From Candidatus Woesearchaeota archaeon (GTDB lineage Archaea > Nanobdellota > Nanobdellia > Pacearchaeales > GW2011-AR1), in contig CAZZNU010000001.1 in the NCBI GenBank assembly GCA_964655925.1, positions 1 to 44,889 on the forward strand: DNA of 44,889 bases, given 5' to 3'. Under the pieces are notes generated by a model. That model ran no database searches, had not been told where the DNA came from, and worked only from the letters and a program-made list of their open reading frames with translations. The translations under genes were made by a program, and so were the position numbers. Shown piece after piece: positions 7,927-44,889 of this stretch. The stretch's first letter is position 1. Every line of letters starts with the position of its first letter.

Positions 7927-7963
7927 ATTTGTTTAATAATAAAGACATTTAAAATTCTGTCGG

Positions 7964-12052: not shown

Positions 12053-12059
12053 GCGGGCG

Positions 12060-12101
12060 GTTGACGGTAAACAGTCGACCGTAGACAGTTTGCTGTTTAC
12101 T
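12060..12101 (+). repeat. Heptanucleotide array B (6 units), downstream flank of the four-helix-bundle gene
   Basis: GTTGACG GTAAACA GTCGACC GTAGACA GTTTGCT GTTTACT. It lies between the nrdG stop (12052) and the four-helix-bundle gene stop (12104). Confidence 0.8.
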
Positions 12102-12103: not shown

Positions 12104-12454
12104 TCACCCCAATCGCTTCGCAAATGTAAAAATTTTCCCGCTTATAATATCTATTTTCCCTACTAAATAATTTAACTCTTCTTCTGATATATAATTAAGA
12201 TTTTGTGCTATGATTAATTGACATTCTACTTCCTTAGCACTACCTAAAGACATATGTAAGAAATGTTTAAAATATTTATTTGAATTTCTTCCGGAGCCCT
12301 CTGCTATATTTGATGAGACACTTACAATTGCTCTTCTTATTTGGTTTGTTAACCCGTACATTTCCTCTTGTGGAAATTTTTTTGTGACCATATAAATTTC
12401 ATTTGTGAATTCAATAGATAACTTCCATATATCTAATTCCTTAAAATTATTCAT
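12104..12454 (-). CDS. Four-helix-bundle protein (23S rRNA intervening-sequence protein / Avd-like family)
   Basis: The 117-aa core MNNFKELDIWKLSIEFTNEIY...QIRRAIVSVSSNIAEGSGRNSNKYFKHFLHMSLGSAKEVECQLIIAQNLNYIS...KIFTFAKRL matches the family pattern (NIAEG.GR, F...A.GS..E). The ATG at 12454 is preferred over the TTG at 12583. Confidence 0.85.
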   Translation of the reverse strand: MNNFKELDIWKLSIEFTNEIYMVTKKFPQEEMYGLTNQIRRAIVSVSSNIAEGSGRNSNKYFKHFLHMSLGSAKEVECQLIIAQNLNYISEEELNYLVGKIDIISGKIFTFAKRLG

Positions 12455-12507
12455 CCATTCATTAACAGAATAAGTATTATATTTTTTATGACTAAATTGG
12501 GATAAGC

Positions 12508-12556
12508 CGTAAGCAGTAAACTGTAAACCGTAGACTGTAGACAGTAGACAGTAGAC
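12508..12556 (-). repeat. Heptanucleotide array C (7 units, opposite orientation), in the leader of the four-helix-bundle gene
   Basis: The plus strand reads CGTAAGC AGTAAAC TGTAAAC CGTAGAC TGTAGAC AGTAGAC AGTAGAC, which is the reverse complement of GTYTACN units. Confidence 0.85.
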
Positions 12557-12604
12557 TGCAAAATTTTTATCCAGAAAATTCAATAAAATTTAAATAGTCA
12601 TTAT

Positions 12605-12629: not shown

Positions 12630-12633
12630 AGTC

Positions 12634-12675
12634 CGTAAACAGCAAACAGTCAACAGTCAACAGTCAACCGTAAAC
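12634..12675 (-). repeat. Heptanucleotide array D (6 units), upstream flank of the four-helix-bundle cassette
   Basis: The plus strand reads CGTAAAC AGCAAAC AGTCAAC AGTCAAC AGTCAAC CGTAAAC. The reverse complement is GTTTACG GTTGACT x3 GTTTGCT GTTTACG. Its inner end, GTTTGCT GTTTAC, mirrors the inner end of array B. Confidence 0.85.
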
Positions 12676-12726: not shown

Positions 12727-15057
12727 TTATGCAACAACAGTAGCCGTAGCAGTAGAGTATACCTTACCCTCACCATCAGTCAAACTGATAGATTTAGCGT
12801 TTTCCAACAAGTAAGATACAGCTCTTGTAGTATCAGCAGCTTCATAACCAGCAACCAATAAAGCAGTTTTACCTCCTCTATTAAATGCCTTAATCATGAA
12901 TTGTCCTTCTCCAACACCAGTATGCTCTGTAAATTCAGTGCCTCTATAAGAACCACCTAATAATTCAGCAGCAACTGTGTTAATAGCAGAACCACCAACA
13001 ACAACAAGATTTTTATCAACACCGCTAACCTCGCTATCCTTCAATGGAACAGCACCGGTAGATGTTGTTACTCTAGCACTTCCAGATGCAATAGATACAT
13101 CAGCAATAGCTTCTTCATTTCCTACGAAAATAGAGAATTTGTTAGAATCTGCTTCATCAAATTCAAACCTAGACGCCATTCTGGTATTAAGGTAACCAGT
13201 TGTAACATCTTTTGTTTTTACTTTCGTCTCAGCAGCAGTTACTAAAGCGTAACCATCAACTTCAAGGTCATCATCACTGTTAACTTTAACATTTAATTTA
13301 AAACCTTCATCTGATAATTTACCTTCGTAATCTGGTTCTAGTAATGTAAAGTGAGATAGATTTCCAAGACCGTTGAATGTTGCCTTGTCAGCAGCACCAA
13401 CTAATTTTGTAAAATCTAAATTCACAGTCAAACCATTTGCTGTATATATTTTATCATGCACCACTGTGTATGTTCCAGAAACTGTTGGCAATATAGACAA
13501 TGTACTAGGTGTACCATCATTTGATGTACCAGTACGAGCTGTACCGTTGGTATATTCAAATTTAACATTTCCTCTAGTTACTTCTCTACCATCTTTTAAT
13601 GTGAAAGTAGAACCATCAACTAAAGAAGATAGTGTTAATTCTGCATCGTCAAGATTTACTTCATCTACCTTATACACTTGTGATCTATATTCTTCACCAG
13701 AAGTTCTAGCAGAAGATACAATTATCATATTATCTTCCATTGATTCTCTTACTTCTGTATAAGGAGAACCACTTCCAGTGTAGGCTACATCAAAGACAAT
13801 TACTTTTCCACCACCACTAGATTCTGGAGTTAAGAATACATTACCATCGTCGTTTCCAACGATTACACCATATCCTACTCTACTTGAATCATAAGATAAT
13901 ATTGGTAAATCAATAGAACCATCTTTTAACTCTAAAGATAACACCAATTCTTCTCCTGGAACTACAGCAGTTTCTTCTAAGTCAGAAGATTCTACTCCTC
14001 CATACACTAATTTTAGTGACTGGAATCCTGGCATAATTAGTTCATTATCTTCTTCAGTTAAGAATGTTCCTTTTGTCTCAGTTGCAGTCCATTCTATTTC
14101 AATGACACCGCTTGCATCATTCACTGTTGTAGCTTTAAGACCTTTTACATCTTTGTCAGCTATTCTTACAGCTGCACCGTTAGTAAGTTTTATAGAACCA
14201 CTTCCTATTGTAACTTCTACGCTACTTGGGATTGATTCTTTACTAGATACATAAACTTCTTTAAGTAAAAGATGTGAATCATCAGACAATTTTTGAGTTT
14301 CGTCTTTGTTCATATTTCCTAAACTCTTTCCATTTACTGTAACTCTAGCTTTTCCTGTACTTATGTGAGATACAGACACTTCATATGTCTTCTCACCAAC
14401 AGTTATAGTTGTAGTTTGACCTTCTTCAACTTCAACAACAGAGCTTGCATCAAACAATTCTATTGTATGTGTTCCTGTTGTGTTTACTTTACTAACATAG
14501 TATGTTCCACCTAATAATGGAATATCAACACCCACAGCTTCATTCAACTCACCCTCAAGGTCTAATTTATACTTAAGAATTTCTGCATCTTTAGCTATGT
14601 TAAACCCTAAAGTTTCTTCTTTATCGTTGTAATTTCTATCTGAAAAGTATTGCAAAGCAGGTCCTGTAGTAGGGAATGTGATAGATTGAGAGTAATCCAT
14701 TTCAACATTGTCCTTATCTCTATAAGTGCCTTCTGCTAAAAATCCTTCCATATGGTCCTCATTAAGAGTTGCAATGACATTTGAGAAGTCATCACCCATA
14801 TTGAATTTTTTATAAGAAGTTTCTAGCTTAAATGAATCACCACCTTCAACAACAACACTTCCTGTTCCAACTCCTAAATCTGCAACAACTGTAGCAGCTG
14901 CAGTAGAGTCACTTGCTAATGCAGAAGCACCAACAACAACAGCAGTATTGCTTCCAGTTAAACTAGAATAGCTAGCTGCTAAAGCACCACTTAAAGTAGC
15001 ACCTATAAGAGTTAAACCTCCTAATACTGTTATAGCTTTGTGAAATAATTTTTTCAT
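12727..15057 (-). CDS. Large secreted surface (S-layer-like) protein
   Basis: Signal peptide MKKLFHKAITVLGGLTLIGATLSGALA. The body is rich in T, S, V, G, E and D, has no Cys, and looks beta-rich. AGGAGGT lies upstream of the ATG at 15057. The track start at 15108 would translate that RBS. Confidence 0.6.
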   Translation of the reverse strand: MKKLFHKAITVLGGLTLIGATLSGALAASYSSLTGSNTAVVVGASALASDSTAAATVVADLGVGTGSVVVEGGDSFKLETSYKKFNMGDDFSNVIATLNEDHMEGFLAEGTYRDKDNVEMDYSQSITFPTTGPALQYFSDRNYNDKEETLGFNIAKDAEILKYKLDLEGELNEAVGVDIPLLGGTYYVSKVNTTGTHTIELFDASSVVEVEEGQTTTITVGEKTYEVSVSHISTGKARVTVNGKSLGNMNKDETQKLSDDSHLLLKEVYVSSKESIPSSVEVTIGSGSIKLTNGAAVRIADKDVKGLKATTVNDASGVIEIEWTATETKGTFLTEEDNELIMPGFQSLKLVYGGVESSDLEETAVVPGEELVLSLELKDGSIDLPILSYDSSRVGYGVIVGNDDGNVFLTPESSGGGKVIVFDVAYTGSGSPYTEVRESMEDNMIIVSSARTSGEEYRSQVYKVDEVNLDDAELTLSSLVDGSTFTLKDGREVTRGNVKFEYTNGTARTGTSNDGTPSTLSILPTVSGTYTVVHDKIYTANGLTVNLDFTKLVGAADKATFNGLGNLSHFTLLEPDYEGKLSDEGFKLNVKVNSDDDLEVDGYALVTAAETKVKTKDVTTGYLNTRMASRFEFDEADSNKFSIFVGNEEAIADVSIASGSARVTTSTGAVPLKDSEVSGVDKNLVVVGGSAINTVAAELLGGSYRGTEFTEHTGVGEGQFMIKAFNRGGKTALLVAGYEAADTTRAVSYLLENAKSISLTDGEGKVYSTATATVVA

Positions 15058-15485
15058 ATTTTTTATTAACCTCCTTTCAGCACTATTATTGTTAGCCGCC
15101 TTAATCAAGGCCCTGAAATTCAGGTTTGGAAACTAAATAGCCTGGCCGGAACTTATAACTAGGGAGCGCTATAAGGTCATCACTAGGGTCCCTGTTTGTA
15201 CACTGACTAGTCAGCATTATTGATGAACAATAACGCAATCATAGTAAATTTTTATCATTTATAAAGTTTATCCTATTATTCTCGGTTGTCGTCGGCGTTT
15301 TTTGCCGAATTGTAAACTTGGTTTATAAACACTTTGTTGTCACTACATGTTTTAACAAAAAAGTAACTCCTAAAACTTTTCAATCTTTTATATATGACAT
15401 AAAAAAACATATGTGCTTCCTCGTCGTAATTGTCTAAAAAACTAATAACCATAATTTATATTTTTTAACGAATTTGTCCAAAAAC

Positions 15486-19112: not shown

Positions 19113-22100
19113 CTACTTCTTCTCTAAAACTCCATCTCTAAAAGTATAATTTTCTAAAACAACTAATTTGTGTATTCCTATATATTCTCCCTTTTGTTTT
19201 TCATCAATTACAATAGCTCCATCCTCTAACACCTTCCCTACATTTTTATTAAAAAACAAAATACCTGATTTTTTTACCTTACCCTTATCATCTATAAAGA
19301 ATTTTGTCCTCTCTCCACCATACACAATATGCTTACCTTCCACATAAAAGTTGTAATCGTACATACATTTTCCAGAAAACAAATCACAATGGTACCCACT
19401 CTCACACTCTAAGTCAGAACTACAATAAGTATTAACACACCTATTATCTTCATCACAAACTTTTCCAACACTACAATCCAAAGACACCAAACACTCAACA
19501 CATGTCCTGCTCTCTGTTATCCAAACCATCTTGTTTTCTATACACCTTTCTTCTTCTCTCACAAATTCGTTTATACATTTTCCAGATGTCAAGTTACAAA
19601 AATATCCACTATTACAATCCAAGTCAGAACTGCAAAAATCACTAACACATACATTTTTTACACATACTCCTGCACCACAATCTAAAGATGAAATACATTC
19701 AACACACCCTAACTCATTTCCACCCCATACAAAACCACTTCTCTTACAATCTAATTCACTCTCTTTAAACTCTTCAAAACATTTTCCAGAAGTTAAATCA
19801 CAAAAATATCCTTTATCACATTCCAAATCAGAACTACAAAAATCATTAACACACATTTTATCTACACTACATATTTTACCTATACCACAATCAGAAGACT
19901 CCAAACACTCAACACATTTTCTATCTTTAGTTATCCAAAATAACCCATTGTCTTTACAAATTTGCTCCTTTTTTATAAAATCGTCCATACATTTTCCAGA
20001 AAACAAATCACAGAAATATCCTTTACCACATTCCAAATCAGAACTACAAAAATCATTAACACACATTCCATCCACGCTACATACCCTACCTATACCACAC
20101 TCTGAAGATGACATACATTCAACACACCTTTTTTCATCCTCTAACCAAGTCCACCCATTCTTAGCACAACTATCTTTCACCCTATCAGCATCCTTATATA
20201 AGGCACCATTAGAAATACGATATTTTTCTAATTCTTCATATGTGAACCCTACTCCTATTATCTCTCTATTCTTAAACTCTGGACTCACCACAATTATATC
20301 ATTTGAATTTAAACTAGCAATTATATTCTTACCACTTAAATCATATATCTTCCTATCAGCTGACAAATACATGTCTATATAATTATAATTATAATAAATT
20401 TTATTCTCTTTTAGATTTAACCCTATATTTTTCTTAAACTCTCCTCCAATAAATGAGTAATCGCTTAATGCCGAAAAAGTTATATCTTCCCCTTTAATTC
20501 GCTTAGATTCATGCCCACTTATTATTGAAATAGATTTATCTTCATTGATATAACCAAATTTTGTATACGGAATTGAACAACTTTGTAAATAGTAATCATA
20601 AACTCCTGTACCTTCTTTTATACAAATACCAGTAGAACGGGTTTCATACAATATTTCTCCCTTTATCGAGTTATATGAAAATCCTGAAACAGATATTGTC
20701 TCAACCAACTTCTCACAATGGTTATGACAATATTCCTTATTGTCCTCCCCCATACTTTCTAAGCAACTCAAAACACAATCCTCTGCTATTCCATCTTCTA
20801 CTACTATTCCTCTTTTTGCTAATATAGAGTTTAAAGAAATCTTCAAATAATATGCGTACGCTTTTTGACTGTTAGTAGCACCACTTGATGTTCCTATTAT
20901 ATCTTCTAAGTCCTTATTTATCTCATTATATGTTTTTACATCTCCAACAGACTCTTCAGGAGCAAAACTGTTTATTTTTTTCTTTACTTCTTCTAATTTA
21001 GTATCAAACTGTTCATAACTTCCAACCGTCCTTTTAATCCCAATATCTTTAATTTCAGAAGGATCTATTGTAGACAGAACCTTGTTTATATCTTTAGTAT
21101 CAAGCCAACATATTACATTTTCATCTCCACAATATCCAACATTTCTCCACCTCTCATCACTCTCTACAATAGATGCTCCAGATTCTGGATTCCTACTAGC
21201 ACAAACTCTAGTAATTCCAACACTAGAAATACTGTTTCTTGAATCAAGCATATTGTCTCCTTCCACAAAGTCAACAATTAAATTTAATCCGTGGCTAAAA
21301 GATAAACAATCCGCTTCTGTTGTTATCTTTGTAGAATTAACATCAGCTAATAGTATTTTATCTATTACACGATTAACTCCATACAGTGAACTAGTTACTC
21401 CAAAGTCGCATTTTGTATCACCATCTACTGAAATACATAATTTCCTATATCCACTTATTGCAGTAAAATCTTTATTTTCTATTTTTGACTCTCTAGCCGG
21501 AATAATTCCTTTAGCTATAACATAAGTATTATCATATGAAATGCTTGATGGATCCGTTAAATATACGCTATAAGACCTATCCTTACTACCTGCATAAATA
21601 CTATAAAATACACTGTATATTGATTCAGGTGGGGTTGTAGCATCAGTATAACTTTTCTCACTAACACTTCCTGTAAATTGTGCCCCTGTTGTTGGAGATA
21701 AAGAATTCCACACTCCACTAAGCCAACTCTGTTTGCCCCCATCTCCTATGCCAATAGACGGCGTATTAATTATTGCATTACATAAATCATAACTAACATT
21801 TTCTAGATTAATATCAAATAACTTGTCTAAAGATGTACTCAAATAATTTGCAATATAATTAGACGCTATAGCGTTTAATTCTTTTCTTTGTGCCAAGAAG
21901 TTAAGATAAGTTGAACCACCACTTAGTTTACTTATACCTAAATTACCCACCCAATTTAGACCTGAATTTACTAACGAGACAGCATGCTTAGTAACCATCT
22001 CACAAATATAAAAGCTCCTTATCTTATCACAACTGCCAACATATTCTCCAGTCGTCGCCCTTGTGTTTAAACAATTTTGATGTTCAACAAGCATAGAACG

Positions 22101-25100
22101 AAATGCATCAAGACCTGCATAAATCCCTGGAATACAAACAAATCCATTTCCTATACAATAAACAATACTTCCTATAACCCCTGTTTGAGTAACATCCTGA
22201 ACTCTCCATTTGCCTTTCAAGTCACATCTATCTGATGGACACTCCACCCAATCACACACCTTCTGAACTCCTAAGCAATCTTGAGGACTCAAAAAGTCCA
22301 TACACTCAAAATCCATTAATGCAAAAAGTGTCTTTCCAACTGTAAATGTTTGTCCTAAAATATTTGCTGTATCACTTCCGTATTGTCTATTTGCTTCCAT
22401 AATCGCAGTATACGCTTTATTATACAAATCCTTGACTTGCGCCTCTGTATAACTCTCACACGGAGTAAATTTATCATAAATAGGATTTCTAACTTCAAAA
22501 CTTCTACATAAGTCTTGCCCCAATCCATAATTTATAGTATTATCCTTTCCAACATTACAAATGTAAAAATTCAAAACTTCTCCATTAGATGAATATGCTT
22601 TGACTCTGTCATCAAACACATCTCCTCTACTCGAAGAAACATAAGCGTACCATCCTCTTTCTCTGTCAAACGGTACAACCGCAGCTAATCCATTAACATT
22701 ACTTAACCCACCAAGCATTGAGCCTACTTCATAATATTCTATATTTCCAGTTGTAATCACATTAGAACAAGCATCATCTAACCTACTTTTTTTACTCGTA
22801 CTAGGTTTTTCTTCTTCTTTCTCATTAACATTATTTTCTACTTCTTTAGAATCTCCACGAACGAGCGGAAATAATGTGAACGAAAATAATATCTTTCCAC
22901 TTTGAGATTGAGTTTGTTGTTCTATTAGTGGAGCAAATTCCTTATTTACATCTCCAAGTATTGTTTTACAATAATAATCTTTATCGCCACAACCTCCATT
23001 AAAATCAGCAACAGAAGAAAACAAAGTATATTTCTCCATTTGAGATACAGACATATCATCTATTTCTAATGGAATAGTTACTCCATTCACATTAATAAAT
23101 AATTCACCACTTGCAGACTTCCACCCTCTCTCTTCAGAAGCATCATTTAATAGAGAGCCTGCTGATACTCTCTCATTCTGAGTCATTTTATAACTTTCTT
23201 TATATTTACTCTTCAAGTCTTTTACATCCTTTGAGTATTGTTTAACTGCCTTATTTATTGCATCATTATTATCTAATAAACACTTATCCATTCCATCTGG
23301 AGAGTCCCTACATCCTTCCTTAAACACTTGCATAACACTCATTCTATACAAAGCTTCTCCATTAGCTAACGCTGTAATCATTTTTATTGTAGTATATGTT
23401 CTAGCTACACCACAAACCGCATTCCAACCATTATGTATTACTTCTATTGCGTCTACAATATTTCCAACTATTCTTATAGTATCGTTCATCTCATCAGCCC
23501 TCTTCTTAGCTTTTTCTGGTGTTAGAGCAAAAAATCTTTTTTCTATTGGAATGTGGAATGTAAAATTCATTGCAATATCTCCACTATCTATCTTTGGTAT
23601 AATCCTTACTTTTGCAACATTATTATAATTCACATTGTCTAGTCTTAATCCTATAATTTTTTTATTTTCATTTTCAAAATATTTGCTCTCTCCTACAGCT
23701 AAACTTATACTCTCTCCTTTCACCCAAAAGACAGCACTATCTTCATTTATTCTTGATATAATAACACCGTACTCCTCAATATACTCTCCCTCTCTTTTAT
23801 TAGGGAATACATTATCTTCACCATCTACATTCAAATTAAAACTAACTGTAACACTTTTTTCGTCTGATAAAAAGTGAAAGTTGTTTATGATTATTGTTGA
23901 ACTCAAACCGTTTTGTAAATTAATATTCCTAGCCCCCTCACTTCTATCAACATTTTGCATCCCTTGTCCCATAATAGAAATTTCTGAGAAATGTTCTGAA
24001 TATTGAAATTCTTTTAAGTATCTATTTACAAGTTCTTTTTGAGTTTTTTCAAGACCTAAATCTCTAGCCAAAAATATAGAATCATATAGCGCCATCTCCG
24101 CATAATATTTCTCGTCTGGCGATTTTTCTTTTGGAAAGTTATTAAGTAATTCTGTCAAATCTTCTTTTATCAACTTAAAAGACTCTATATTTTTCTCTTT
24201 ATCTACCAATTCCTCTACATTTTTTCTACTTTTTAGTCTCAGTGTATAAATTTCACTTCCACATTTAATCATCACCTGTCCAACAGGAGCATCCTCGCAT
24301 TTAACACCATCTTTACTTCCAGCAATATCACAATCTTTTACTATCCTGTTAACCACACAAGCACCGTTTAGTATAGAATCACCTTCCCTTAACATGTAGT
24401 TCATTCCATCTATATTCAAATCTACTTTATTTTTTGCAGGCACTATCCCCTCAAACTTAACTCTAAACCCAGCCTTACATTCGTATCCAGGTAAATAAAC
24501 AACATCGCTTGTTTGACCTTCCTTCAAATTAAAAGAAGCATAGTTTTCTAAACCAAGCATGTTAAAAACAAGTTGAACCGATTCAGAACTATAATCTCTT
24601 ACCTTAACCAACCCCGTACTAGAAAGATATTCGCCCGTATTTCTCTCGTCCAAACTTAAATATAAAACCTCATCTTTAATTCTGTCATTAGTAACAAAAG
24701 TGTACTTTATGTTAGCTGTCAAAATACCTGTTACATATTTTTCTAGATTGTCTTCATTAGGCTGCTTTTTTAGTACAACAACTACATAACCTATATTTTC
24801 CAAAACATCATCAATAATCTTAGATGAACTTTTAGACAATGATGACCTGTATGGATGATAACTTATACTTCTCACTTCTTCAGGGTAATCTCCACTAAAA
24901 GAAATAGAAGATATAGCCGATGCTTGAATTAATGAATTTAGTCTAACTGCATTTAATTGGCACATCACACTAACATCTTGTTCTGCTAATAAATTACTAG
25001 TAACAACCGACGGAGTGCAAGAACTTATGAAAATATCAAAATCTGCCTTTGCTGGAGTACTACACACATCTCCAAAAGAGGTTTCTCCACCTGGGAAATT

Positions 25101-25235
25101 ATTAGGTGAATTGCCAAAAGAGCTACTTCCTGTTGGATTATTAAAATTATCTTCTGCAAAAACTAAACTCATGGTCATTAGTAAAACCAGACACATCATT
25201 AAACAATAAATCGTCCTTTTATTTACATCTACCAT
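19113..25235 (-). CDS. Giant (2040-aa) secreted protein with C-terminal Cys-rich repeats, putative adhesin
   Basis: Sec-type signal peptide (MMCLVLLMTMSLVFA/ED) and a large body with no recognisable family. Four tandem repeats of about 70 aa with 10 Cys each lie near the C-terminus. Its start overlaps the stop of the upstream gene (TAATG). Confidence 0.75.
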   Translation of the reverse strand: MVDVNKRTIYCLMMCLVLLMTMSLVFAEDNFNNPTGSSSFGNSPNNFPGGETSFGDVCSTPAKADFDIFISSCTPSVVTSNLLAEQDVSVMCQLNAVRLNSLIQASAISSISFSGDYPEEVRSISYHPYRSSLSKSSSKIIDDVLENIGYVVVVLKKQPNEDNLEKYVTGILTANIKYTFVTNDRIKDEVLYLSLDERNTGEYLSSTGLVKVRDYSSESVQLVFNMLGLENYASFNLKEGQTSDVVYLPGYECKAGFRVKFEGIVPAKNKVDLNIDGMNYMLREGDSILNGACVVNRIVKDCDIAGSKDGVKCEDAPVGQVMIKCGSEIYTLRLKSRKNVEELVDKEKNIESFKLIKEDLTELLNNFPKEKSPDEKYYAEMALYDSIFLARDLGLEKTQKELVNRYLKEFQYSEHFSEISIMGQGMQNVDRSEGARNINLQNGLSSTIIINNFHFLSDEKSVTVSFNLNVDGEDNVFPNKREGEYIEEYGVIISRINEDSAVFWVKGESISLAVGESKYFENENKKIIGLRLDNVNYNNVAKVRIIPKIDSGDIAMNFTFHIPIEKRFFALTPEKAKKRADEMNDTIRIVGNIVDAIEVIHNGWNAVCGVARTYTTIKMITALANGEALYRMSVMQVFKEGCRDSPDGMDKCLLDNNDAINKAVKQYSKDVKDLKSKYKESYKMTQNERVSAGSLLNDASEERGWKSASGELFINVNGVTIPLEIDDMSVSQMEKYTLFSSVADFNGGCGDKDYYCKTILGDVNKEFAPLIEQQTQSQSGKILFSFTLFPLVRGDSKEVENNVNEKEEEKPSTSKKSRLDDACSNVITTGNIEYYEVGSMLGGLSNVNGLAAVVPFDRERGWYAYVSSSRGDVFDDRVKAYSSNGEVLNFYICNVGKDNTINYGLGQDLCRSFEVRNPIYDKFTPCESYTEAQVKDLYNKAYTAIMEANRQYGSDTANILGQTFTVGKTLFALMDFECMDFLSPQDCLGVQKVCDWVECPSDRCDLKGKWRVQDVTQTGVIGSIVYCIGNGFVCIPGIYAGLDAFRSMLVEHQNCLNTRATTGEYVGSCDKIRSFYICEMVTKHAVSLVNSGLNWVGNLGISKLSGGSTYLNFLAQRKELNAIASNYIANYLSTSLDKLFDINLENVSYDLCNAIINTPSIGIGDGGKQSWLSGVWNSLSPTTGAQFTGSVSEKSYTDATTPPESIYSVFYSIYAGSKDRSYSVYLTDPSSISYDNTYVIAKGIIPARESKIENKDFTAISGYRKLCISVDGDTKCDFGVTSSLYGVNRVIDKILLADVNSTKITTEADCLSFSHGLNLIVDFVEGDNMLDSRNSISSVGITRVCASRNPESGASIVESDERWRNVGYCGDENVICWLDTKDINKVLSTIDPSEIKDIGIKRTVGSYEQFDTKLEEVKKKINSFAPEESVGDVKTYNEINKDLEDIIGTSSGATNSQKAYAYYLKISLNSILAKRGIVVEDGIAEDCVLSCLESMGEDNKEYCHNHCEKLVETISVSGFSYNSIKGEILYETRSTGICIKEGTGVYDYYLQSCSIPYTKFGYINEDKSISIISGHESKRIKGEDITFSALSDYSFIGGEFKKNIGLNLKENKIYYNYNYIDMYLSADRKIYDLSGKNIIASLNSNDIIVVSPEFKNREIIGVGFTYEELEKYRISNGALYKDADRVKDSCAKNGWTWLEDEKRCVECMSSSECGIGRVCSVDGMCVNDFCSSDLECGKGYFCDLFSGKCMDDFIKKEQICKDNGLFWITKDRKCVECLESSDCGIGKICSVDKMCVNDFCSSDLECDKGYFCDLTSGKCFEEFKESELDCKRSGFVWGGNELGCVECISSLDCGAGVCVKNVCVSDFCSSDLDCNSGYFCNLTSGKCINEFVREEERCIENKMVWITESRTCVECLVSLDCSVGKVCDEDNRCVNTYCSSDLECESGYHCDLFSGKCMYDYNFYVEGKHIVYGGERTKFFIDDKGKVKKSGILFFNKNVGKVLEDGAIVIDEKQKGEYIGIHKLVVLENYTFRDGVLEKK
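19353..20168 (-). repeat. Four tandem coding repeats (64-70 codons each) inside the giant ORF
   Basis: The protein repeats share C..(N/S)G..W.....(K/R/G)CVEC..S.(D/E)C..G..C.....CV(N/S)(D/T)(F/Y)CSSDL(E/D)C..GY.C(D/N)L.SGKC. The DNA period is about 205-210 nt (boundaries 19353, 19545, 19749, 19959, 20168). Confidence 0.85.
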
Positions 25236-35353: not shown

Positions 35354-38300
35354 CTAAATCATTCTGGCTCTATGTATCTCACTAACTATTATATTGTTTC
35401 TATCTTCCTCTCCTTCGTTATACACTCCACTAATAACAACCCCATCCTCTTCTTCTAAGTTCATAACATGATAGAACTCTTCAAATGTTCTAGGAAATAT
35501 TACACATTCACATGAATCTTTTTTGTTTACTATCTTTAGAAACGCCATTGTATCTCCGTTTTTTGTTTTTATTTTTTTAAATTCTTCTACAAGGCCAAAC
35601 ACAGAGACACTTTCTTTATCTGTAAACTTAAAATTGTTTAAGGCCTTAGACCTTGATTCTACATACAAATCAATTAAGTTATAAGAGACACAAACACCCA
35701 CCAATTCTTTTTCAGATTCTATTATCTCTTTAATTGTCATCTTCTTAGGCAAATCTTCTTCTTTCTTTGTTGGTTCACCAAACAGTGTCGTCTGTTTATT
35801 ATGTTTTTTATTCTTGCTTTCCACTTCAGACAAAAGCTCCCCTCTGTTTATACCAAAATTATCAAAGCACCCTACAGATATTAAATTTTTTAAAACCCTT
35901 TTATTGACTTTTGATGCATCTATTTTTGCAACAAACTCTTTGTACGAATTATATGGTCTATTGGATAATATTGATTCTATCGCACTATTCCCAACATTTT
36001 TTATGCCTCCAAGACCAAATCTAATTATTTTTTTTCTACCCATCTGTTCAATATTAAAACCCACTAAAGATGTGTTAATATCTGGACCTAAGACATTTAT
36101 GTCCATATTTCTTGTTTCCTTCAAATATTTCCTCATTTTTTTTGTATCGCTCACACTTGAAGAAAGCACCGCTGCCATAAATTCTACCGGATAGTGTTTT
36201 TTAAGATACATTGTTCTATATGCCACTAGTGCATATGCTGCTGCATGACTTTTATTAAATGAGTAGTCAGCAAATTTTACAATATCATCCCATAATTTCT
36301 CAACATCACCCTTCTTCATTTTCGCAATAGATAAACATCCTTTTTTGAATTTTTCCTCCATACTTTTCATCAAATCCAATTTTTTCTTACCTATTGCTTT
36401 ACGCAATATATCCGCTTCAGACATACTAAATCCTGCTAACTTTTGAGCTAATTTCATAACCTGCTCTTGGTACACCATAATTCCATATGTTGAAGACAAA
36501 ATTTCTTCTGTTAACTTATGTGGATATATTACTCTTTCTTTTCCCTTTTTCCTATTAGCATAGACTTCTAAATACTGCATAGGTCCTGGCCTGTAAAGCG
36601 CAACTATTGCAATTATATCATCAAAATTTGTAGGTCCAACCATCTTCAATGATTTCTGCATTCCCTGACTTTCAAGCTGAAATATTCCAACACTATTTCC
36701 TTCTCTAAACATTTCGTACACACCATCATCATCTAATGGTATATTTTCAAACCAATTATCATCTTTCTCTATAAAATCTAAAACTTTTTTTGTTATATTT
36801 AATGTTTCAAGTCCTAGGAAGTCAAACTTTAGTAAACCAATGTCTTCTATTTCTCGTCCTTCTAACTGACTAACAATATATCCATCTCTTTCCATAACTG
36901 GCATATAATTTACAATTGGCTCCTTCCCCCAGACAACACCACAAGCATGGACTCCTTTGTGTCTGACACATCCTTCTAACCTCATTGCTATCTGAAATAT
37001 TTCTGGATATTCTTCTTTAAACCTATTTAATTCGGTATTTGACAATCTTCCAGAAGAACTCTTTTTTTCTAAACTTTCTTTAATTGTTTTTCCTTCAACA
37101 TACTCTGTTATTTTATTTGCTATATTAAATGGTATTTTAAAAACTCTCATTACATCCTTCAATACTGATTTGGCACTCATTGTTCCATATGTACCAATTA
37201 AAGCAACCTTATCTTCTCCATATTTTTCTTTTACATAATTTATAACTATATTTCTGTCTCCAAAATCAATATCAAAATCAGGCAAACTAATTCTTTCTGG
37301 ATTAAGAAATCTTTCAAATAATAAATCCAAATGTAATGGTTCTAGTTGAGTTATCCCCAATAAATATGCAACAATGCTTCCAGCTCCACTTCCTCTTCCT
37401 GGCCCTACTTGGCATTTTTTCTTAGCAGAAATTATAAAATCTTGCACTATCAAAAAATATGTAGAATATCCCATTTTTTTTATTACAGATAGCTCATACT
37501 CCATCCTTTCCCTTGCTTTTTCATAGTTACTTTTTCCACTATATATTTTTTCTAGGCTTTCTGTACATAGTTTTGTCAGATATTCATCATGACTGTAACC
37601 TTCTGGTGGCTCGTATTCTGGAAATATTGTTTCTCCTAATTCCAATTCCACATTACACATATCTGCTATTTTTTTCGTATTATCGAGTGCGTCTGGTCTA
37701 TCCGAAAATCTTTCAAACATTTCCTCTTTATTCATTAGGTAATACCCATCTCCATTAAATTGAAAGTGTTTTGGGTCATCTAAAAAACCATTAGTTTGTA
37801 TACACAACATAACTTCATGTGCTCTTGCATCCTCTTTTAATAAATAATGTGCATCGCACGCAGCAACTAAGTTTAGCCCATATTCTTCCGCCCATTTGTA
37901 GTATACATCTCTTACTTTTTTTTCATCTAAAATATTATGGTTTTGTACCTCTAAATAAAAATTATCTTTTCCAAATATTTCTAAATATTCATCTAAATTA
38001 CTTTTAGCTTTTTCAAGGTTGTCGTTCACAATCTCTGTTGCGATATCATTTGCCAAACATGCACTTGTACATATAAGACCTTCGCTATATTTCTTTAATA
38101 TATTTTTATCTATTCTTGGCTTGTAATAAAATCCCTCGCAAGATGCAATAGAGCTTAGCTTCATCAAGTTTTTGAAACCTATGTTATTCTTGGCTAACAA
38201 AACTAAATGTCCTCTATGTTCATTTTTATCCTTTACGCTTATATCTCTTACAACATATGCTTCCATTCCAAAAATCAATTTCACCCCTACTTTTTTTGCC

Positions 38301-41300
38301 TCTTGGTATTTATTTACAAACGACTCCATATTTCCATGTTCTGTAATAGCAACACTGTCCATCCCTAATTCTTTTACACGCTTAAATAAATCCTTAACCC
38401 TTATTGAACCATCTAAAAAACTAAACTCTGTATGTAAGTGTAGATGCACAAAGTCAACATCCTTAGCATCTTTTTTAGATTTTGTATTCTTGTCTTTTAC
38501 ATGTTCTTTTATATTCTCTTTGTTTTCAATATATTTTCTATCTATTTCTTCACTTTCTTCATTCAATTTTATCTGTTTATCAGAACCGAATATATCATGA
38601 ATATATTTTTGTGCTATATTTACACACTCAACAGTGTACTCACTAACATCATATTTCTTTGTTAACTCTATAGCCGTATCTAAATATTTTTTAATAGATG
38701 CGTATGATACCGTCATCAAAAGATTCCCTTCACACCTTCGGCAAGTTCCTATCAAAGGCACCCTACGATGTTTTAAACCACAAGAAGAGCATCTAAACTG
38801 CTGTTTAAAAAATCTTGATAAATTTCCTATAATATCTTTTAAAAAATGTTTTTCTATTATCATCTTAGCTACATTATCTTTGTCAACAGCCCTTATCTTT
38901 TCAGCCAACTCCATTTGTTTTTCTACTTTTTCCTTCATATTGTTTAGTAATTTATACATGCCATTTACTTCACCCTGATTTATATCAAATGTATCATGTG
39001 TAAATCCTATATTAGAAAAACAAGATATCTTTTTTTTCATTCTCTCTTTTACATTTTTATTTTTTACATTACTAGAATGTTCTTTATTTAGAGATTTTTC
39101 ATACAATTCTAAATCATATTTATCGGCTAAATCATATTCTAATATTTGATCATCTACTTCACCTGGATTAATCTTACTGTTTAAAATAAGTGGCGCATCT
39201 TGAGTTCCACCTCTATGCTTTGGTAAAAACTCTTTATTAAAATTTAACAAAACATCCATTAGCATCATCACACTCATTTCATCACCATCGCAATCTCTTC
39301 TAATGGCTGCATGCATGTACGGACTAGCCATTATCCCTTGCATTTGAGAAAAACCTATTATTCTTCCAACAACTCCTGCACAATTGTGGGGTGCCATACA
39401 GACAACTAATTGTCCTACTAAATCTTTTTTGCTTTTTACATTATAATATCTATCTAAAGAATAAATTTTTTCCAATTCTTCATCTATAAAATTACATATA
39501 TTAGAGAAAACATCAATAGATGACATACTTCCAGAATCGTTAAAACTTGATAGTACTATATCGTGCGGTTTTAATTCAATAATTTGTTCTTCTGAGATTA
39601 TTTCATTTCCATTTATGTCAATATTATATCCTATTTCTTTTAGTTTTTCTATAGATGCATTTATTTCTTTAGGTTTAAAATGAGTCAAAGGTACTTCTGT
39701 ACCATCATACCTAATCGTCCCATCTTTATTAACACCAAGATTATAGAGGCTTCTTAATATTCCTTTTCTAATATCTTCCTCTTTATCACATTTTTTCATT
39801 CCCCTAACAGAACTCAATATTTTTTTATCATATTTATTTTCTTCTATAAACTTCACAGCACTTATGTAGACTTTTGATGTTTGATTGACTGTTGACTGTT
39901 GACTGTTGACTGTTGACTGTAGACTGTTGACTGTTGACTGTTGACTGTAGACTGTTGACTGTAGACTGTTAACAGTAGATGTTACCGAATTAAATGTTGT
40001 TTTTCTCAGCCTTGCTTTTTCTGGGCGCCCCATCCTAGCCCCTATAAATTCTCCACTTTTATCTTTTATTTCATACTCAGCAAATTCGTTAATTAGTGCT
40101 AGAATATCTTTTCGTCTCTCTGACTTTGAAATTATATCTTCTAATTTATTTTCATTACTTCCAATGTTTATAAATAGAGATTTAGCAACATCTTTTTCTA
40201 TAACAACATTATCTAAAACAACTTCATGTGGGACTCCTAGTAATTCCAAACTTCTTTTGCCAACATTATACTTCTCTTTAGAAATATTCCCATACGGTAA
40301 TATAAATTTTTCCTCTATCCAATTTCCCTCTTTTATCCATATCAATAGTTTTACAAAATCTTCTACATCTATTTGGTTCCAAAAATAAATGAATTCTGGA
40401 TGCAATGGTATAGAATATTTTTTACTTATTCTTATAGCTAAATCTAAACTTATATCATTTTTATCGTACTCTATATAGTCATTAAGTATTTCCATTTTAT
40501 TTTTCAGGTCCAAATCCCACCATTCTTCTACATATGCAGACTTTAACAAAATAGAATTTCTATCAACCACATCCCCTAAAGACACTAACATATCTCCTAA
40601 ATAAATTATTTCTTCTGTTTCTTTGTAAAGTTTTTTCCCTTCTTCAAATGTTTTTATTTTTCTTACACTACCGTTTTTTAGTTTCACTATTGGTCCATCT
40701 ATACTATCACAAGAAGTGATAATTGCTCCCTTTATTGGTTTTTCAATTTTTAGTTGAGTCCCTAAAGATAAAAAACTATTACTAATACCCATCGTTGCTG
40801 GACTAATTGACACTGCACTAAATCCACTATTTCTACTTTTACCATATCTGAATCTAAAAGAACCACCTCTTGATGGATATCCAAAAATGGGTCTCCCTGC
40901 TACTAAATCTTTTATATAAACAGCATCCCCTGTATGTCCTTCAATAGACTTTGAGTGAATAAGAGAGTATTCTCCAAGATAATCAAATCCAGAAGATATT
41001 ATACCATGTTTTTTTACTTCTTTTAGTCTTGCTAGTGCCTTTTGTGCCTTTTGTGCTAATCCTTCACATAAAACTAAACACATGCCTCCACGAATTTTAT
41101 TCTCTGGCACTCTTTTTAAATTTCTATACTCACTAACTTCTATATTTTCTGTAGGCTCCCCGTCAATTTGAATTGGTATGTTTTTTACTAAAAATTTTAA
41201 TTCTTCTTCTGTTGGTAAATACTGCAAATTTGAGACTTTCTCATTATAATCTATACATTCTATATAGTATCTATTAATTTCTTCTTCTGTTGGAATATAT

Positions 41301-41896
41301 TTAGAATACTCGAAATGTTCCCTCAAATAATCTACAAGCATTAGAAAAACACATGTAGTCGTCGTTCCCGCACTTCTTATTGGTCCTGAAAATTTTACAT
41401 TGAAAAATTCCTTATTATCTTCTTTTACTAGAGTTAGTCCTGTATATCCCTCTATAGGACTAGCAACAACACCTAATGTTAAATAGGCAAATCCTATCCT
41501 TAGCCCAGCATCTATAGAATCAATTTTTTTATCGAAATTATAAAACTTGTTCTCGGCTATTTCTCTTGCTATTATAAAGGCTATCGTTGGATTTTGTTTC
41601 CCATATTTTTCTTCAAGTTCTTCTATTCTTTGACTAATTTCTTCTACAGGAAGGAAAGAATATATTGTTTTTATTAAATTTACACTTCTTTCAGCCACCG
41701 ACTTGGCTATTGGAATATCCACATCCAAAGAAAAGTCTATCCCTCTTTTTTTTGCTAAAAGTGCAACATCGTATGATTTTTTTATTTTATTATTCAATTC
41801 CTCAAAATATTCATCCTCATCCCAATATTTTACTCCCCTATCTTCTACCATTTTTAGAGAACTCAAAAATAATTTATATAGATTTTTATACAGCAA
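35354..41896 (-). CDS. Fusion protein: DNA polymerase D large subunit (DP2) + linker + bacterial-type DNA polymerase III alpha (DnaE)
   Basis: The DP2 part (about 38585-41896) has GARMGRPEKA, APHNCAGVVGRIIGF, AAIRRDCDGDE, RGGTQDAPL and FRCSSCG...CRRCEG. A 42-aa K/E-rich linker (38459-38584) has no Met and no stop. The DnaE part (35357-38458) has PHP motifs FVHLHLHTEFSFLDGS, ITEHGNM and ACDAHY, then GPGRGSGAGSIVAYLLGIT, LPDFDIDF, KFDFLGLETL, FNKSHAAAYA, a QTTLF clamp-type motif and a C-terminal OB fold. An alternative start is Met16 (41851). Confidence 0.85.
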   Translation of the reverse strand: MLYKNLYKLFLSSLKMVEDRGVKYWDEDEYFEELNNKIKKSYDVALLAKKRGIDFSLDVDIPIAKSVAERSVNLIKTIYSFLPVEEISQRIEELEEKYGKQNPTIAFIIAREIAENKFYNFDKKIDSIDAGLRIGFAYLTLGVVASPIEGYTGLTLVKEDNKEFFNVKFSGPIRSAGTTTTCVFLMLVDYLREHFEYSKYIPTEEEINRYYIECIDYNEKVSNLQYLPTEEELKFLVKNIPIQIDGEPTENIEVSEYRNLKRVPENKIRGGMCLVLCEGLAQKAQKALARLKEVKKHGIISSGFDYLGEYSLIHSKSIEGHTGDAVYIKDLVAGRPIFGYPSRGGSFRFRYGKSRNSGFSAVSISPATMGISNSFLSLGTQLKIEKPIKGAIITSCDSIDGPIVKLKNGSVRKIKTFEEGKKLYKETEEIIYLGDMLVSLGDVVDRNSILLKSAYVEEWWDLDLKNKMEILNDYIEYDKNDISLDLAIRISKKYSIPLHPEFIYFWNQIDVEDFVKLLIWIKEGNWIEEKFILPYGNISKEKYNVGKRSLELLGVPHEVVLDNVVIEKDVAKSLFINIGSNENKLEDIISKSERRKDILALINEFAEYEIKDKSGEFIGARMGRPEKARLRKTTFNSVTSTVNSLQSTVYSQQSTVNSLQSTVNSQQSTVNQTSKVYISAVKFIEENKYDKKILSSVRGMKKCDKEEDIRKGILRSLYNLGVNKDGTIRYDGTEVPLTHFKPKEINASIEKLKEIGYNIDINGNEIISEEQIIELKPHDIVLSSFNDSGSMSSIDVFSNICNFIDEELEKIYSLDRYYNVKSKKDLVGQLVVCMAPHNCAGVVGRIIGFSQMQGIMASPYMHAAIRRDCDGDEMSVMMLMDVLLNFNKEFLPKHRGGTQDAPLILNSKINPGEVDDQILEYDLADKYDLELYEKSLNKEHSSNVKNKNVKERMKKKISCFSNIGFTHDTFDINQGEVNGMYKLLNNMKEKVEKQMELAEKIRAVDKDNVAKMIIEKHFLKDIIGNLSRFFKQQFRCSSCGLKHRRVPLIGTCRRCEGNLLMTVSYASIKKYLDTAIELTKKYDVSEYTVECVNIAQKYIHDIFGSDKQIKLNEESEEIDRKYIENKENIKEHVKDKNTKSKKDAKDVDFVHLHLHTEFSFLDGSIRVKDLFKRVKELGMDSVAITEHGNMESFVNKYQEAKKVGVKLIFGMEAYVVRDISVKDKNEHRGHLVLLAKNNIGFKNLMKLSSIASCEGFYYKPRIDKNILKKYSEGLICTSACLANDIATEIVNDNLEKAKSNLDEYLEIFGKDNFYLEVQNHNILDEKKVRDVYYKWAEEYGLNLVAACDAHYLLKEDARAHEVMLCIQTNGFLDDPKHFQFNGDGYYLMNKEEMFERFSDRPDALDNTKKIADMCNVELELGETIFPEYEPPEGYSHDEYLTKLCTESLEKIYSGKSNYEKARERMEYELSVIKKMGYSTYFLIVQDFIISAKKKCQVGPGRGSGAGSIVAYLLGITQLEPLHLDLLFERFLNPERISLPDFDIDFGDRNIVINYVKEKYGEDKVALIGTYGTMSAKSVLKDVMRVFKIPFNIANKITEYVEGKTIKESLEKKSSSGRLSNTELNRFKEEYPEIFQIAMRLEGCVRHKGVHACGVVWGKEPIVNYMPVMERDGYIVSQLEGREIEDIGLLKFDFLGLETLNITKKVLDFIEKDDNWFENIPLDDDGVYEMFREGNSVGIFQLESQGMQKSLKMVGPTNFDDIIAIVALYRPGPMQYLEVYANRKKGKERVIYPHKLTEEILSSTYGIMVYQEQVMKLAQKLAGFSMSEADILRKAIGKKKLDLMKSMEEKFKKGCLSIAKMKKGDVEKLWDDIVKFADYSFNKSHAAAYALVAYRTMYLKKHYPVEFMAAVLSSSVSDTKKMRKYLKETRNMDINVLGPDINTSLVGFNIEQMGRKKIIRFGLGGIKNVGNSAIESILSNRPYNSYKEFVAKIDASKVNKRVLKNLISVGCFDNFGINRGELLSEVESKNKKHNKQTTLFGEPTKKEEDLPKKMTIKEIIESEKELVGVCVSYNLIDLYVESRSKALNNFKFTDKESVSVFGLVEEFKKIKTKNGDTMAFLKIVNKKDSCECVIFPRTFEEFYHVMNLEEEDGVVISGVYNEGEEDRNNIIVSEIHRARMI
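39882..39986 (+). repeat. Heptanucleotide array E (about 14 units) in frame inside the DP2 coding region
   Basis: The plus strand reads TGATTGA, CTGTTGA x4, CTGTAGA, CTGTTGA x3, CTGTAGA, CTGTTGA, CTGTAGA, CTGTTAA, CAGTAGA, TGTTACC. It is translated as TSTVNSLQSTVYSQQSTVNSLQSTVNSQQSTVNQ, a 7-aa period as expected for a 7-nt unit. Confidence 0.9.
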
Positions 41897-43904: not shown

Positions 43905-44889
43905 TTACACAATACTATCTTTTTGATTGTCATCATTAAAATCCAATACTTTTACTTCTTTTGTTTTAAGATTCACAAGTGGAACTTTGCATAAATCTGG
44001 GTTAAGTCCTCTTTTTTCCAAAAATTTCGTATTTTTCATCCAGCAAGAGCCATTTACTAATAACACATTGTTTTTAATGTCTATATTACTTCTATGAAAA
44101 TGTGAAGTGAATATTATATCTGGTATTTCATTTAAAATAAAAGAATTATTTTTATCTATCATAAAATCAACATCCCCATATGGCATAGATATTTGACTCG
44201 TGTTTAAAAATTCCTTGATTAAAACATTAGGATTTTCATATTTATATTTATTTTTAATTTCATTTTTCTCATTGATTAAATTATACATATTATTTCCATG
44301 ATAAGAAAAGACTTTTATTCCTTTTTCTAATATTACAGTAGATGGATTTCCTATGAAAAAAATATTTTCTCTATCTTTTAATTCTTCAAAATAATTCTGA
44401 TTTATTTTTGGTTGTGGTTCTCCTTTCCATACAGAATCTCTATTTCCTGGAATTACGAAAATTTGCAAATCATTCCTAAATAGTTTTAGTAAATCTTGAG
44501 CTTTTTTATATTGTCCATTTATAGTTTTTATTAACAAATCTTTTTCTTGACCATTATATTGTCCAACTCCATCTATTAAATCTCCTCCAATAAATAAATA
44601 TTTTACTTTTTTAGAAATATTACTATAATTTTGGCTATTATCTTTATTATTTATCCATTTTATAAAATTCAGAAAATTCTTTTCTAAAAAATTAATAGAG
44701 CCACAATGAATATCTGCAATAAATGCAACCCAACAATCGTCATCCGTTTTTTTATTACTATTTGTTTTTATTTTTGGGAATATTAAGTCATTTGCTAATA
44801 ACAATCCATTTAAAATATTTCCTCTAATTAAAACAATATCATCTAAAAATATTTTTTTTACCTTATCATATAAAATATTATTATTCTTA
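43905..44889 (-). CDS. DNA polymerase D small subunit (DP1), 5'-truncated by the window edge
   Basis: Calcineurin/Mre11-type phosphoesterase motifs IADIHCGS, IGGDLIDG, VIPGNRDS, YHGNN and TSHFH. The track start at 44804 is a TTG. I checked that the frame stays open upstream to position 44889 (KNNNILYDKVKKIFLDDIVLIRGNILNG...), so the OB-fold part lies outside the window. Confidence 0.85.
   Translation of the reverse strand, partial: KNNNILYDKVKKIFLDDIVLIRGNILNGLLLANDLIFPKIKTNSNKKTDDDCWVAFIADIHCGSINFLEKNFLNFIKWINNKDNSQNYSNISKKVKYLFIGGDLIDGVGQYNGQEKDLLIKTINGQYKKAQDLLKLFRNDLQIFVIPGNRDSVWKGEPQPKINQNYFEELKDRENIFFIGNPSTVILEKGIKVFSYHGNNMYNLINEKNEIKNKYKYENPNVLIKEFLNTSQISMPYGDVDFMIDKNNSFILNEIPDIIFTSHFHRSNIDIKNNVLLVNGSCWMKNTKFLEKRGLNPDLCKVPLVNLKTKEVKVLDFNDDNQKDSIV

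Follow-up and report, generated by a model that had tools for sequence, protein, structure and literature searches.

A heptanucleotide repeat array at the site of missing clamp-2 elements in a fused DP2–DnaE polymerase of a DPANN archaeon

The window analyzed here is the whole 44,889-nucleotide (nt) stretch of contig CAZZNU010000001.1 (assembly GCA_964655925.1) from a Candidatus Woesearchaeota archaeon. Its minus strand carries a gene in which DP2, the large subunit of the archaeal polymerase PolD, is fused to DnaE, the alpha subunit of the bacterial polymerase (Pol) III. The DP2 half contains a tandem array of 7-nt units, which lies in place of elements of clamp-2 that are conserved in other DP2 proteins. 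The gene has the following features.

35354..41851 (open frame 35354..41896), minus strand: DP2–DnaE fusion open reading frame (ORF), ATG at 41851, 2165 amino acids (aa), stop codon included in the coordinates
38822..41851, minus strand: DP2 (PolD large subunit) module, residues ~1–1010, with the N-terminal/KH region, both barrels, the catalytic loop and Zn-III/RRxP
39782..40000, minus strand: degenerate linker, residues 618–690, in place of the clamp-2 loop and Zn-I/Zn-II of canonical DP2
39885–39983, minus strand: heptanucleotide tandem array, 99 nt, 13 phased units plus degenerate ends
35354..38461, minus strand: DnaE (Pol III alpha) module, residues ~1131–2165, with HLHLH (PHP), PDFDIDF and KFDFLGL intact

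The Pfam domains PolC_DP2_N, PolC_DP2_central and PolC_DP2_cat occupy aa 14–975 of the fusion protein, and the PHP, DNA_pol3_alpha, finger, HHH_6 and OB domains occupy aa 1136–2159; a low-complexity spacer separates the two halves. In a phmmer search against the Protein Data Bank (PDB), the DP2 half matched the Pyrococcus abyssi and Thermococcus kodakarensis DP2 proteins with E ~1e-196 in four aligned blocks, and the DnaE half aligned over its full length with Thermus aquaticus Pol III alpha (2hpi, E=4e-225). Both active sites are intact by motif. The DP2 half has the N-terminal domain (PolC_DP2_N, E=1.4e-75), the KH-like motif GPIRSAGTT at 156–164 with the invariant columns G156, P157, R159, A161, G162 and T164 retained, the FRFRYG.SR/KGA motifs of barrel 1 (the FRFRYGKSR/KGA region), the HRGGTQDAPL segment, and Zn-III with the KxRRxP motif for docking of DP1 (FRCSSCGLKHRRVPLIGTCRRCEG). 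Its catalytic DCDGDE loop at 853–858 belongs to a stretch, RRDCDGDE (851–858), that is invariant in 121 aligned sequences. The DnaE half contains HLHLHTEFS, PDFDIDF and KFDFLGL and has retained its PHP metal ligands along with the three palm aspartate motifs.

The array is reported by Tandem Repeats Finder (TRF) both with period 7 (39885–39970, 12.3 copies, 92% matches, score 151) and with period 14 (39885–39983, 7.1 copies, 93% matches). The unit is TCAACAG or TCTACAG on the coding strand and CTGTTGA or CTGTAGA on the plus strand. The phased units comprise CTGTTGA (eight), CTGTAGA (three), CTGTTAA and CAGTAGA (one each), and a degenerate TGATTGA stands at the left edge. On the plus strand their order is four CTGTTGA, CTGTAGA, three CTGTTGA, CTGTAGA, CTGTTGA, CTGTAGA, CTGTTAA and CAGTAGA; the variants thus follow one another aperiodically (TTTTATTTATA). 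Perfect runs reach four units at most, and the array is interrupted by the three CTGTAGA and two degenerate units. Such patterns exceed chance by far: a two-unit pattern has 22 matches in the window, where dinucleotide-preserving shuffles predict 0.84, and the three-unit ACNGTNN pattern has 31 against 0.01.

The fusion ORF extends for 647 codons on one side of the array and 1510 on the other. In-frame translation of the array gives TTFNSVTSTVNSLQSTVYSQQSTVNSLQSTVNSQQSTVNQTSKVY, immediately C-terminal to GARMGRPEKARLRK(617), after which the protein reads TTFNSVT-STVNSLQ-STVYSQQ-STVNSLQ-STVNSQQ-STVNQ-TSKVY. The repeat-encoded part covers residues ~624–656, 33 aa of the form (STVNSLQ/STVYSQQ/STVNSQQ)n. 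The unit is free of stops in all three phases on the coding strand only; each unit of the opposite strand contains TGA or TAG. An earlier sequence-only reading of this DNA described about 14 units in frame, and the TRF reports, the unit parse and the translation agree on a real, in-frame array of 13–14 units.

In the phmmer alignment, residues 618–677 (60 aa) are left unaligned opposite residues 667–784 (118 aa) of P. abyssi DP2, the interval that spans the LFPIG..GG..R loop and the Zn-I and Zn-II modules of clamp-2. A canonical Pacearchaeota DP2 (P0013) aligns across this interval with the loop (KPPVQVLFPIGLAGGSSRDIKKA), two CxxC...CxxC zinc modules and a helix whose end is KLKGVMG. An alignment with 24 relatives shows that the window's protein has lost the loop along with both zinc modules and keeps the helix, with a V-R-G or 'L.GV.G'-like remnant (residues ~659–690). 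The stretch between RPEKA and KDGTIRYDGTEVPLTHF has a single Cys and neither an LFP..GG segment nor CxxC pairs. The loop columns F, P, G, G and R and four cysteines, all missing here, are at least 90% conserved among the 121 aligned DP2s, a set that includes the window's own protein and 112 non-fusion proteins. The window's DP2 therefore lacks a feature of the family, the LFP..GG.R loop with Zn-I and usually Zn-II between the barrels. The sequence-only reading had noted the missing LFP..GG and Cys-rich modules and the single Cys after RPEKA, and had proposed that the repeat marks a replacement or deletion in the clamp region. Both points are borne out by the alignment with characterized DP2s, in which the tract is not a simple insertion beside intact clamp-2 elements.

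Passages of Raia et al. (2019, PMC6355029) and Madru et al. (2020, PMC7101311) describe Zn-I as stabilizing the loop-rich clamp-2 of P. abyssi PolD, and Zn-II as inserted in Zn-I, 'not strictly conserved' and lining the template entry. According to passages of the latter paper, the LFP..GGR loop of P. abyssi contacts the minor groove of DNA as well as PCNA (proliferating cell nuclear antigen); loop residues K689 and E692 contact DNA and PCNA, and E692, K779 and Y781 touch PCNA. The variability of Zn-II has its counterpart in some Pacearchaeota DP2s (P0100, P0104 and P0110) without the second Cys pair. The window's DP2 differs from these in that it also lacks Zn-I and the nearly invariant LFP..GGR loop.

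Fusion proteins of the same kind were found in ten relatives: P0001–P0008 (58–68% identity, with domain content indicating full coverage) and two loci, L125 and L126, from metagenome-assembled genomes (MAGs) of GTDB. The segment from GRPEK to NKDGT is 129–214 aa long (mode 146–149) in 118 of the 121 aligned DP2s. It is short only in P0001 (72 aa), P0002 (85 aa) and the window (95 aa, 33 of them repeat-encoded), and all three are DnaE fusions. Loss of Zn-I together with the LFP..GGR loop was seen in none of the 112 non-fusion DP2s examined. Identity of the window's protein to P0001–P0004 and P0006–P0008 is 15–25% in residues 618–690 versus 55–79% in every other block. The site tolerates insertions and is a hot spot for insertion of repeats, since P0036, a normal Pacearchaeota DP2, carries an independent 18-aa tandem repeat (RNSVPxKMGTxVPxSSGA, three copies) after GGRMKSVLDAVGT, between the GGR loop and Zn-I, at the same site as the window's tract. 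A remnant of an intein or intron at the site was considered and rejected: most Pacearchaeota and Nanoarchaeota DP2s (~1600–1690 aa; P0009–P0120) have an intein with a LAGLIDADG domain, which sits at the catalytic DCDGDE loop, and none of the fusion proteins P0001–P0008 has it.

The state of clamp-2 varies among the fusion proteins. In P0003–P0008 the loop and the zinc modules are complete. P0002 has kept the loop (GNPNGLFSVKNGGRQ) and lost the zinc modules. Both are lost in P0001/L126, in L125 and in the window, the three that are closest to one another (68%). The heptamer tract is found only in the window among the fusion proteins compared, and is absent from all relatives examined; at its position P0001 and L125 have unrelated fillers of 19–20 residues, and their linkers are 72–73 aa long versus 95 aa in the window. 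The deletion would thus be older than the repeat, since the sister fusions P0001/L126 and L125, and in part P0002, have the loss and no repeat. From this distribution, the deletion appears to have come first and stepwise, and the repeat later. The repeat would be a late, lineage-specific addition to a linker that was already unconstrained. It is a consequence and not a cause of relaxed constraint in the clamp-2 segment. The clamp replacement proposed by the sequence-only reading holds insofar as the tract stands in place of clamp-2 elements, but the tract did not bring about their loss. Among the DP2s examined, only those fused to Pol III alpha show the stepwise loss of clamp-2.

Outside this segment both polymerase modules are well preserved. 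Identity between the window's protein and P0001 is 69–72% in the DP2 domains and 76–79% in the PHP, palm and fingers of DnaE. A usable AlphaFold2 (AF2) model of the DP2 half was obtained from a 50-sequence alignment, with a mean predicted local distance difference test score (pLDDT) of 83.4 and a predicted template modeling score (pTM) of 0.83; a run with 25 sequences (pLDDT 58, pTM 0.41) was discarded. In Foldseek the model matches P. abyssi PolD chain B (9f2a, 8ppt and 6t8h) with a query TM-score (TMq) of 0.84–0.85. The only long stretch below a pLDDT of 50 is residues 618–658, with values of 30–40, so that the tract forms a low-confidence loop in an otherwise good model.

Conservation was assessed at 339 columns chosen for at least 95% conservation among non-fusion DP2s, a choice that favors the non-fusion baseline by construction. 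Departures from conserved residues were counted as follows.

Window: ~42 of 315 assessable columns, 10 of them deleted
P0001: 41
P0002: 24
P0003: 23
P0004–P0008: 7–14
Non-fusion proteins: 3.7 on average

This gradient suggests that DP2 evolves faster in the fusion clade, and fastest in the loop-less subgroup. With its preserved motifs and fold, the DP2 half is nevertheless not decaying wholesale. DnaE may conceivably have taken over synthesis, as the sequence-only reading suggested for a functionally altered DP2 half; both active sites are intact, and the DP2 domains are almost as conserved as those of DnaE. The loss of clamp-2 elements offers a testable hypothesis, namely that labor has been divided anew between two replicative polymerases, one archaeal and one bacterial, within a single polypeptide, and the tract is a marker of the site where this subgroup of DPANN DP2–DnaE proteins lost them.

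The small subunit of PolD is encoded two genes upstream of the fusion gene.

43905..44804, minus strand: DP1 (PolD small subunit), with Metallophos and DNA_pol_E_B domains by Pfam

The order of the locus is Cdc6/Orc1 – DP1 – (GT2 – hypothetical) – fusion – aS21 – EF1beta, and the Cdc6–DP1–...–fusion synteny is also seen in the loci L001 and L004. The gene content of the window is archaeal (a Sec61-type SecY, SRP54, NAC, an S-layer-like protein and DP1), and its closest relatives are labeled Pacearchaeota, Woesearchaeota or Nanoarchaeota, all of them DPANN. A passage of Castelle et al. (PMC8204110) places Pol III genes next to the DP1 and DP2 genes in two Pacearchaeota; our literature search found no report of a DP2–DnaE fusion or of its clamp-2 loss.

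The array in the DP2 module is one of five period-7 arrays in the window (7960–8027, 12057–12096, 12513–12559, 12639–12671 and the DP2 array). Of the four that are non-coding, three lie around a small gene of a four-helix-bundle family.

7960..8027, strand not assigned: ACNGTNN array, 9–10 units, intergenic between the NAC gene (8034..8366, minus strand) and the next gene (6703..7926, minus strand)
12057..12096, strand not assigned: ACNGTNN array, 4–6 units, directly 3' of the four-helix-bundle gene
12104..12454, minus strand: four-helix-bundle gene (23S rRNA intervening-sequence protein family), 116 aa, Pfam PF05635 with E=8e-38
12513..12559, strand not assigned: ACNGTNN array, 5–7 units, ACTGTAG/ACAGTAG, ~60 bp upstream of the four-helix-bundle gene
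12639..12671, strand not assigned: ACNGTNN array, 4–5 units, ACAGTCA, downstream of the S-layer-like gene

Among the 31 intergenic units, A at position 1 is present in 25, C at position 2 in all 31, G at position 4 in 30 and T at position 5 in 28, and positions 3, 6 and 7 are variable. This conservation defines the family by a palindromic ACNGT core and a 7-nt period. ACNGT is present in every one of the 13 phased units of the DP2 array, which is far more homogeneous than the others and has the unit types ACTGTTG and ACTGTAG. Both types recur at 12.5–12.7 kb: ACTGTAG at 12520–12552, and ACAGTCA, which in tandem is the reverse complement of the main unit ACTGTTG, at 12646–12671. The statement of the sequence-only reading that the DP2 array belongs to the family of four intergenic arrays is upheld by the common unit types and core. 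The four arrays exist, but they are not independent of one another, as three cluster at one small gene (12.06–12.67 kb). That the repeat colonized the polymerase gene, as the same reading put it, is something we infer. In a BLAST comparison with the rest of the window, the flanks of the DP2 array have no homology beyond chance 9–13-mers. The lack of common flanking sequence rules out a larger transposed segment, and nothing larger than heptamers would have moved. A period-6 CAGTAG run at 12738–12759, which encodes the C-terminal ...YSTATATVVA of the S-layer-like protein (ORF 12727..15108, minus strand), was not counted as a member of the family; it looks similar but has a different period.

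No ACNGT arrays were found in ~100 kb around the fusion genes of the relatives, against five in the 45 kb of the window. The family is found far more widely in metagenomes, where a scan for six consecutive ACNGTNN units returned at least 120 contigs with 21–74% G+C. Most arrays among the matches listed are solo perfect microsatellites; 17 of 130 are possibly within an extended ORF, and none is comparable to the case in the window. A homologue of PF05635 lies between or beside arrays in at least five contigs among the matches listed, and a local profile search yielded three more distant PF05635 candidates among the metagenome contigs listed. The coordinates of these cassettes are 12057–12671 in the window, 3049–3633 in L005, 1534–2074 in L010, 69–756 in L054, 1628–2161 in L033 and 2219–2666 in L074.

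The upstream arrays of the window, L005, L010 and L054 are inverted copies of the downstream ones, and the two are predicted to form a stem of 36–92 bp enclosing the ORF, although some complementarity between any pair of ACNGT arrays follows from their construction. In the window, 12057–12096 is predicted to pair with 12639–12671 in the minus-strand transcript. The recurrence of one architecture in contigs of 31% to 61% G+C suggests that the PF05635 cassette with heptamer arrays is a widespread element, either mobile or similar to an intervening sequence (IVS). It resembles the 23S rRNA IVS (S23p/PF05635) in having a PF05635 gene within inverted arrays that form a predicted long stem, in the window and at least four contigs. 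It differs in that the cassettes are not in rRNA genes and the stems are made of ACNGT heptamer arrays; the DP2 array, moreover, has no adjacent PF05635 gene. Our literature search found no report of heptamer arrays around PF05635 genes, and ACNGT arrays as stems of four-helix-bundle cassettes in organisms of such different G+C content may merit a study of their own. Between the two arrays upstream of the four-helix-bundle gene there is also a G+C-rich direct repeat, TTTCGCGCG(n9)TTTCGCGCG, at 12596–12632, in surroundings of 31% G+C.

We consider the tract to be, on balance, probably a recent, lineage-specific expansion of the heptamer by slippage, tolerated as a disordered linker. The ancestor of the fusion subgroup would have had the tip of clamp-2 deleted and a short, unconstrained linker in its place, the Zn-I and Zn-II modules being lost first and the DNA-contacting LFP..GGR loop second. 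In the lineage of the window a TCAACAG array may then have arisen in this linker, or been copied into it, in a genome where the ACNGT-core family would have been active elsewhere, and may have grown to 99 nt through slippage. It could persist because the unit on the coding strand has no stop in any phase, because its total length keeps the frame, and because its product would be a polar, disordered stretch of S, T, V, N and Q at the periphery of the enzyme. Changes in unit number that are not multiples of three would destroy the catalytic barrel of DP2 together with DnaE and would be purged by selection. Slippage as the mechanism, the neutrality of the tract and the order of deletion and repeat are the parts of this scheme that we infer.

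Such behavior fits what has been described for heptanucleotide simple sequence repeats (SSRs) in prokaryotes. TCAACAG is a rotation of CAACAGT, which we take to be STRR3 of Calothrix and Nostoc. As summarized in passages of PMC4679880, Mrazek et al. (2007) found heptanucleotides to be the most abundant class of long SSRs in most prokaryotic genomes and non-triplet units to be rare in coding regions. TAACTGA heptamers of Beggiatoaceae, Cyanobacteria and Bacteroidetes are described (MacGregor 2015) as mostly intergenic; those within ORFs are limited to the orientation without stops and to the periphery of proteins, one of them in a surface loop of an RNA polymerase beta'-like protein. The window shares with these systems many tandem 7-nt arrays per genome, mostly intergenic and sporadic across lineages, and the limitation of ORF cases to the stop-free orientation and to variable surface regions. 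It differs in the host, a DPANN archaeon, in the palindromic ACNGT core, in the size of the array (13 units and 33 codons versus the 3-unit published ORF case), and in its position in the middle of an essential replicase, where a structural module is otherwise conserved. As a repeat the tract is thus of a known kind, but the place in which it is found is unusual and informative. By itself it is one more heptanucleotide repeat in a tolerant loop, notable as a non-triplet repeat in the middle of an essential replicase.

Several points weigh against this explanation. No second assembly of the organism was found by the look-up in the gene index or by the scan with the 27-nt flank, and with neither reads nor a second assembly the stability of the unit number and the correctness of the assembly are not seen directly. 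The palindromic ACNGT core is invariant while the other positions vary, a hint that the DNA or RNA itself may be under selection; purely neutral slippage leaves this unexplained. The linker of 95 aa, compared with 72–73 aa in the sisters, leaves room for a selected, length-restoring role. Finally, an essential ORF carries a real mutational burden with a 7-nt unit inside it, and this argues for either an offsetting benefit or a very young array.

It is possible, though in our view unlikely, that the expansion was fixed because it restores length or flexibility between the end of double-psi beta-barrel 1 (DPBB-1, at RPEKA) and the helices before DPBB-2. The connection left by the clamp-2 loss would then have been too short or too rigid, and the tract would be an adaptive new disordered region. 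Were the 33 repeat residues taken away, ~62 aa of linker would be left in the window's protein, below the 72–85 aa of P0001, L125 and P0002, and the polar composition and low model confidence are those of typical disordered linkers. Passages of a study of archaeal Borg elements (PMC9879509) describe tandem repeats that create new disordered regions in proteins, with these regions under selection. As in Borgs, the repeat in the window is recent and rapidly evolving and gives a polar, low-complexity, disordered segment; the Borg repeats in ORFs are perfect. Genic Borg repeats reportedly have unit lengths divisible by three, whereas the unit here is 7 nt, so that changes in unit number are tolerated only in steps of three and the peptide repeats every 7 aa (21 nt). 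A 7-nt unit is ill-suited to building a stable linker. With the repeat the linker exceeds those of the sisters, so that no precise length is restored, and a unit purity of 92–93% suggests youth rather than long maintenance.

A role at the level of DNA or RNA is doubtful. In such a case the ACNGT array would be a protein-binding array, a pairing partner or a target of RNase III, an element akin to the arrays of the PF05635 cassettes that was placed in the only tolerant part of the polymerase gene. The invariant core of the 31 intergenic units with its variable positions 3, 6 and 7 speaks for it, as do the inverted arrays with predicted 36–92 bp stems at four-helix-bundle genes in four independent cassettes. 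In addition, the minus-strand transcript of 12639–12671, (ACUGUUG)3, is perfectly complementary to the array in the DP2 mRNA. Against it, a scan of the whole window with Rfam identified only two tRNAs and no family at any array, no binding protein was identified, and most metagenome arrays among the matches listed are solo, with no PF05635 gene nearby. Since relatives have the same polymerase and no array, any role would lie outside the conserved biology of the polymerase.

A more far-reaching form of this idea, which we regard as improbable, makes the DP2 array a working part of an IVS-like system of ACNGT heptads and four-helix-bundle proteins, in a lineage whose PolD is becoming a scaffold for DnaE. 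The array might possibly serve as a docking site for a cassette or be its footprint, or it might be an antisense or RNase III target on the replicase mRNA through an (ACUGUUG)n arm. An archaeal replicase in the midst of polymerase replacement would in that case have its expression tied to a selfish or regulatory RNA element.

The sequence-only reading saw in the 7-nt unit a frameshift liability or a switch. The arithmetic of the liability is right: gain or loss of one or two units leads to a stop 10–25 codons past the array, which removes DPBB-2 and the entire DnaE half, and the frame is kept when three units are gained or lost. A contingency locus, in which slippage would reversibly turn off the full-length DP2–DnaE and leave an N-terminal fragment of ~660 aa, is nevertheless very improbable. 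As described in passages of PMC8262952, 7-bp repeats drive phase variation in the Haemophilus influenzae genes hmw1A and hmw2A, and tetranucleotide repeats act within ORFs; a change in unit number there alters expression or frame, as it would here. Those tracts are long and uninterrupted, lie in promoters or at 5' ends of genes for surface or modification functions, and have documented polymorphism. The window's tract is interrupted, with no perfect run beyond four units, and lies mid-ORF in a gene that is neither dispensable nor variable: it encodes the catalytic subunits of two replicative polymerases in a conserved Cdc6–DP1–...–polymerase locus, and cells would probably not survive its loss. 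None of the relatives examined has the array, and no alternative allele was found, as an exact-sequence look-up of the fusion protein in the gene index gave no record and the 27-nt flank had 0 matches among the metagenome contigs. A downstream restart that would give a split DP2 after a frameshift was considered, but Met685 has no convincing upstream signal.

A misassembly of the array or of its length from short reads is the least probable explanation: de Bruijn assemblies are error-prone at tandem repeats and the gene index and metagenome contigs provide no independent confirmation, but the frame is kept across the 2165-aa ORF (a 1 in 3 chance at arbitrary length), the variant units are ordered aperiodically, unlike in a collapsed loop, the 99-nt array is shorter than common read lengths, and four other arrays of the family lie in unique contexts on the same contig.

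Two further loci of the window were noted. A 210-nt tandem repeat (3.7 copies, 70% matches) at 19355–20126 lies within ORF 19113..25235 (minus strand), which encodes a repeat-containing protein of 2040 aa with no Pfam match; a neighboring 624-aa ORF also has no Pfam match. At 8699–12052 an NrdR-like repressor with a Zn ribbon and an ATP-cone, the anaerobic ribonucleotide reductase NrdD and a radical-SAM activase are encoded in tandem; NrdR is generally held to be bacterial.

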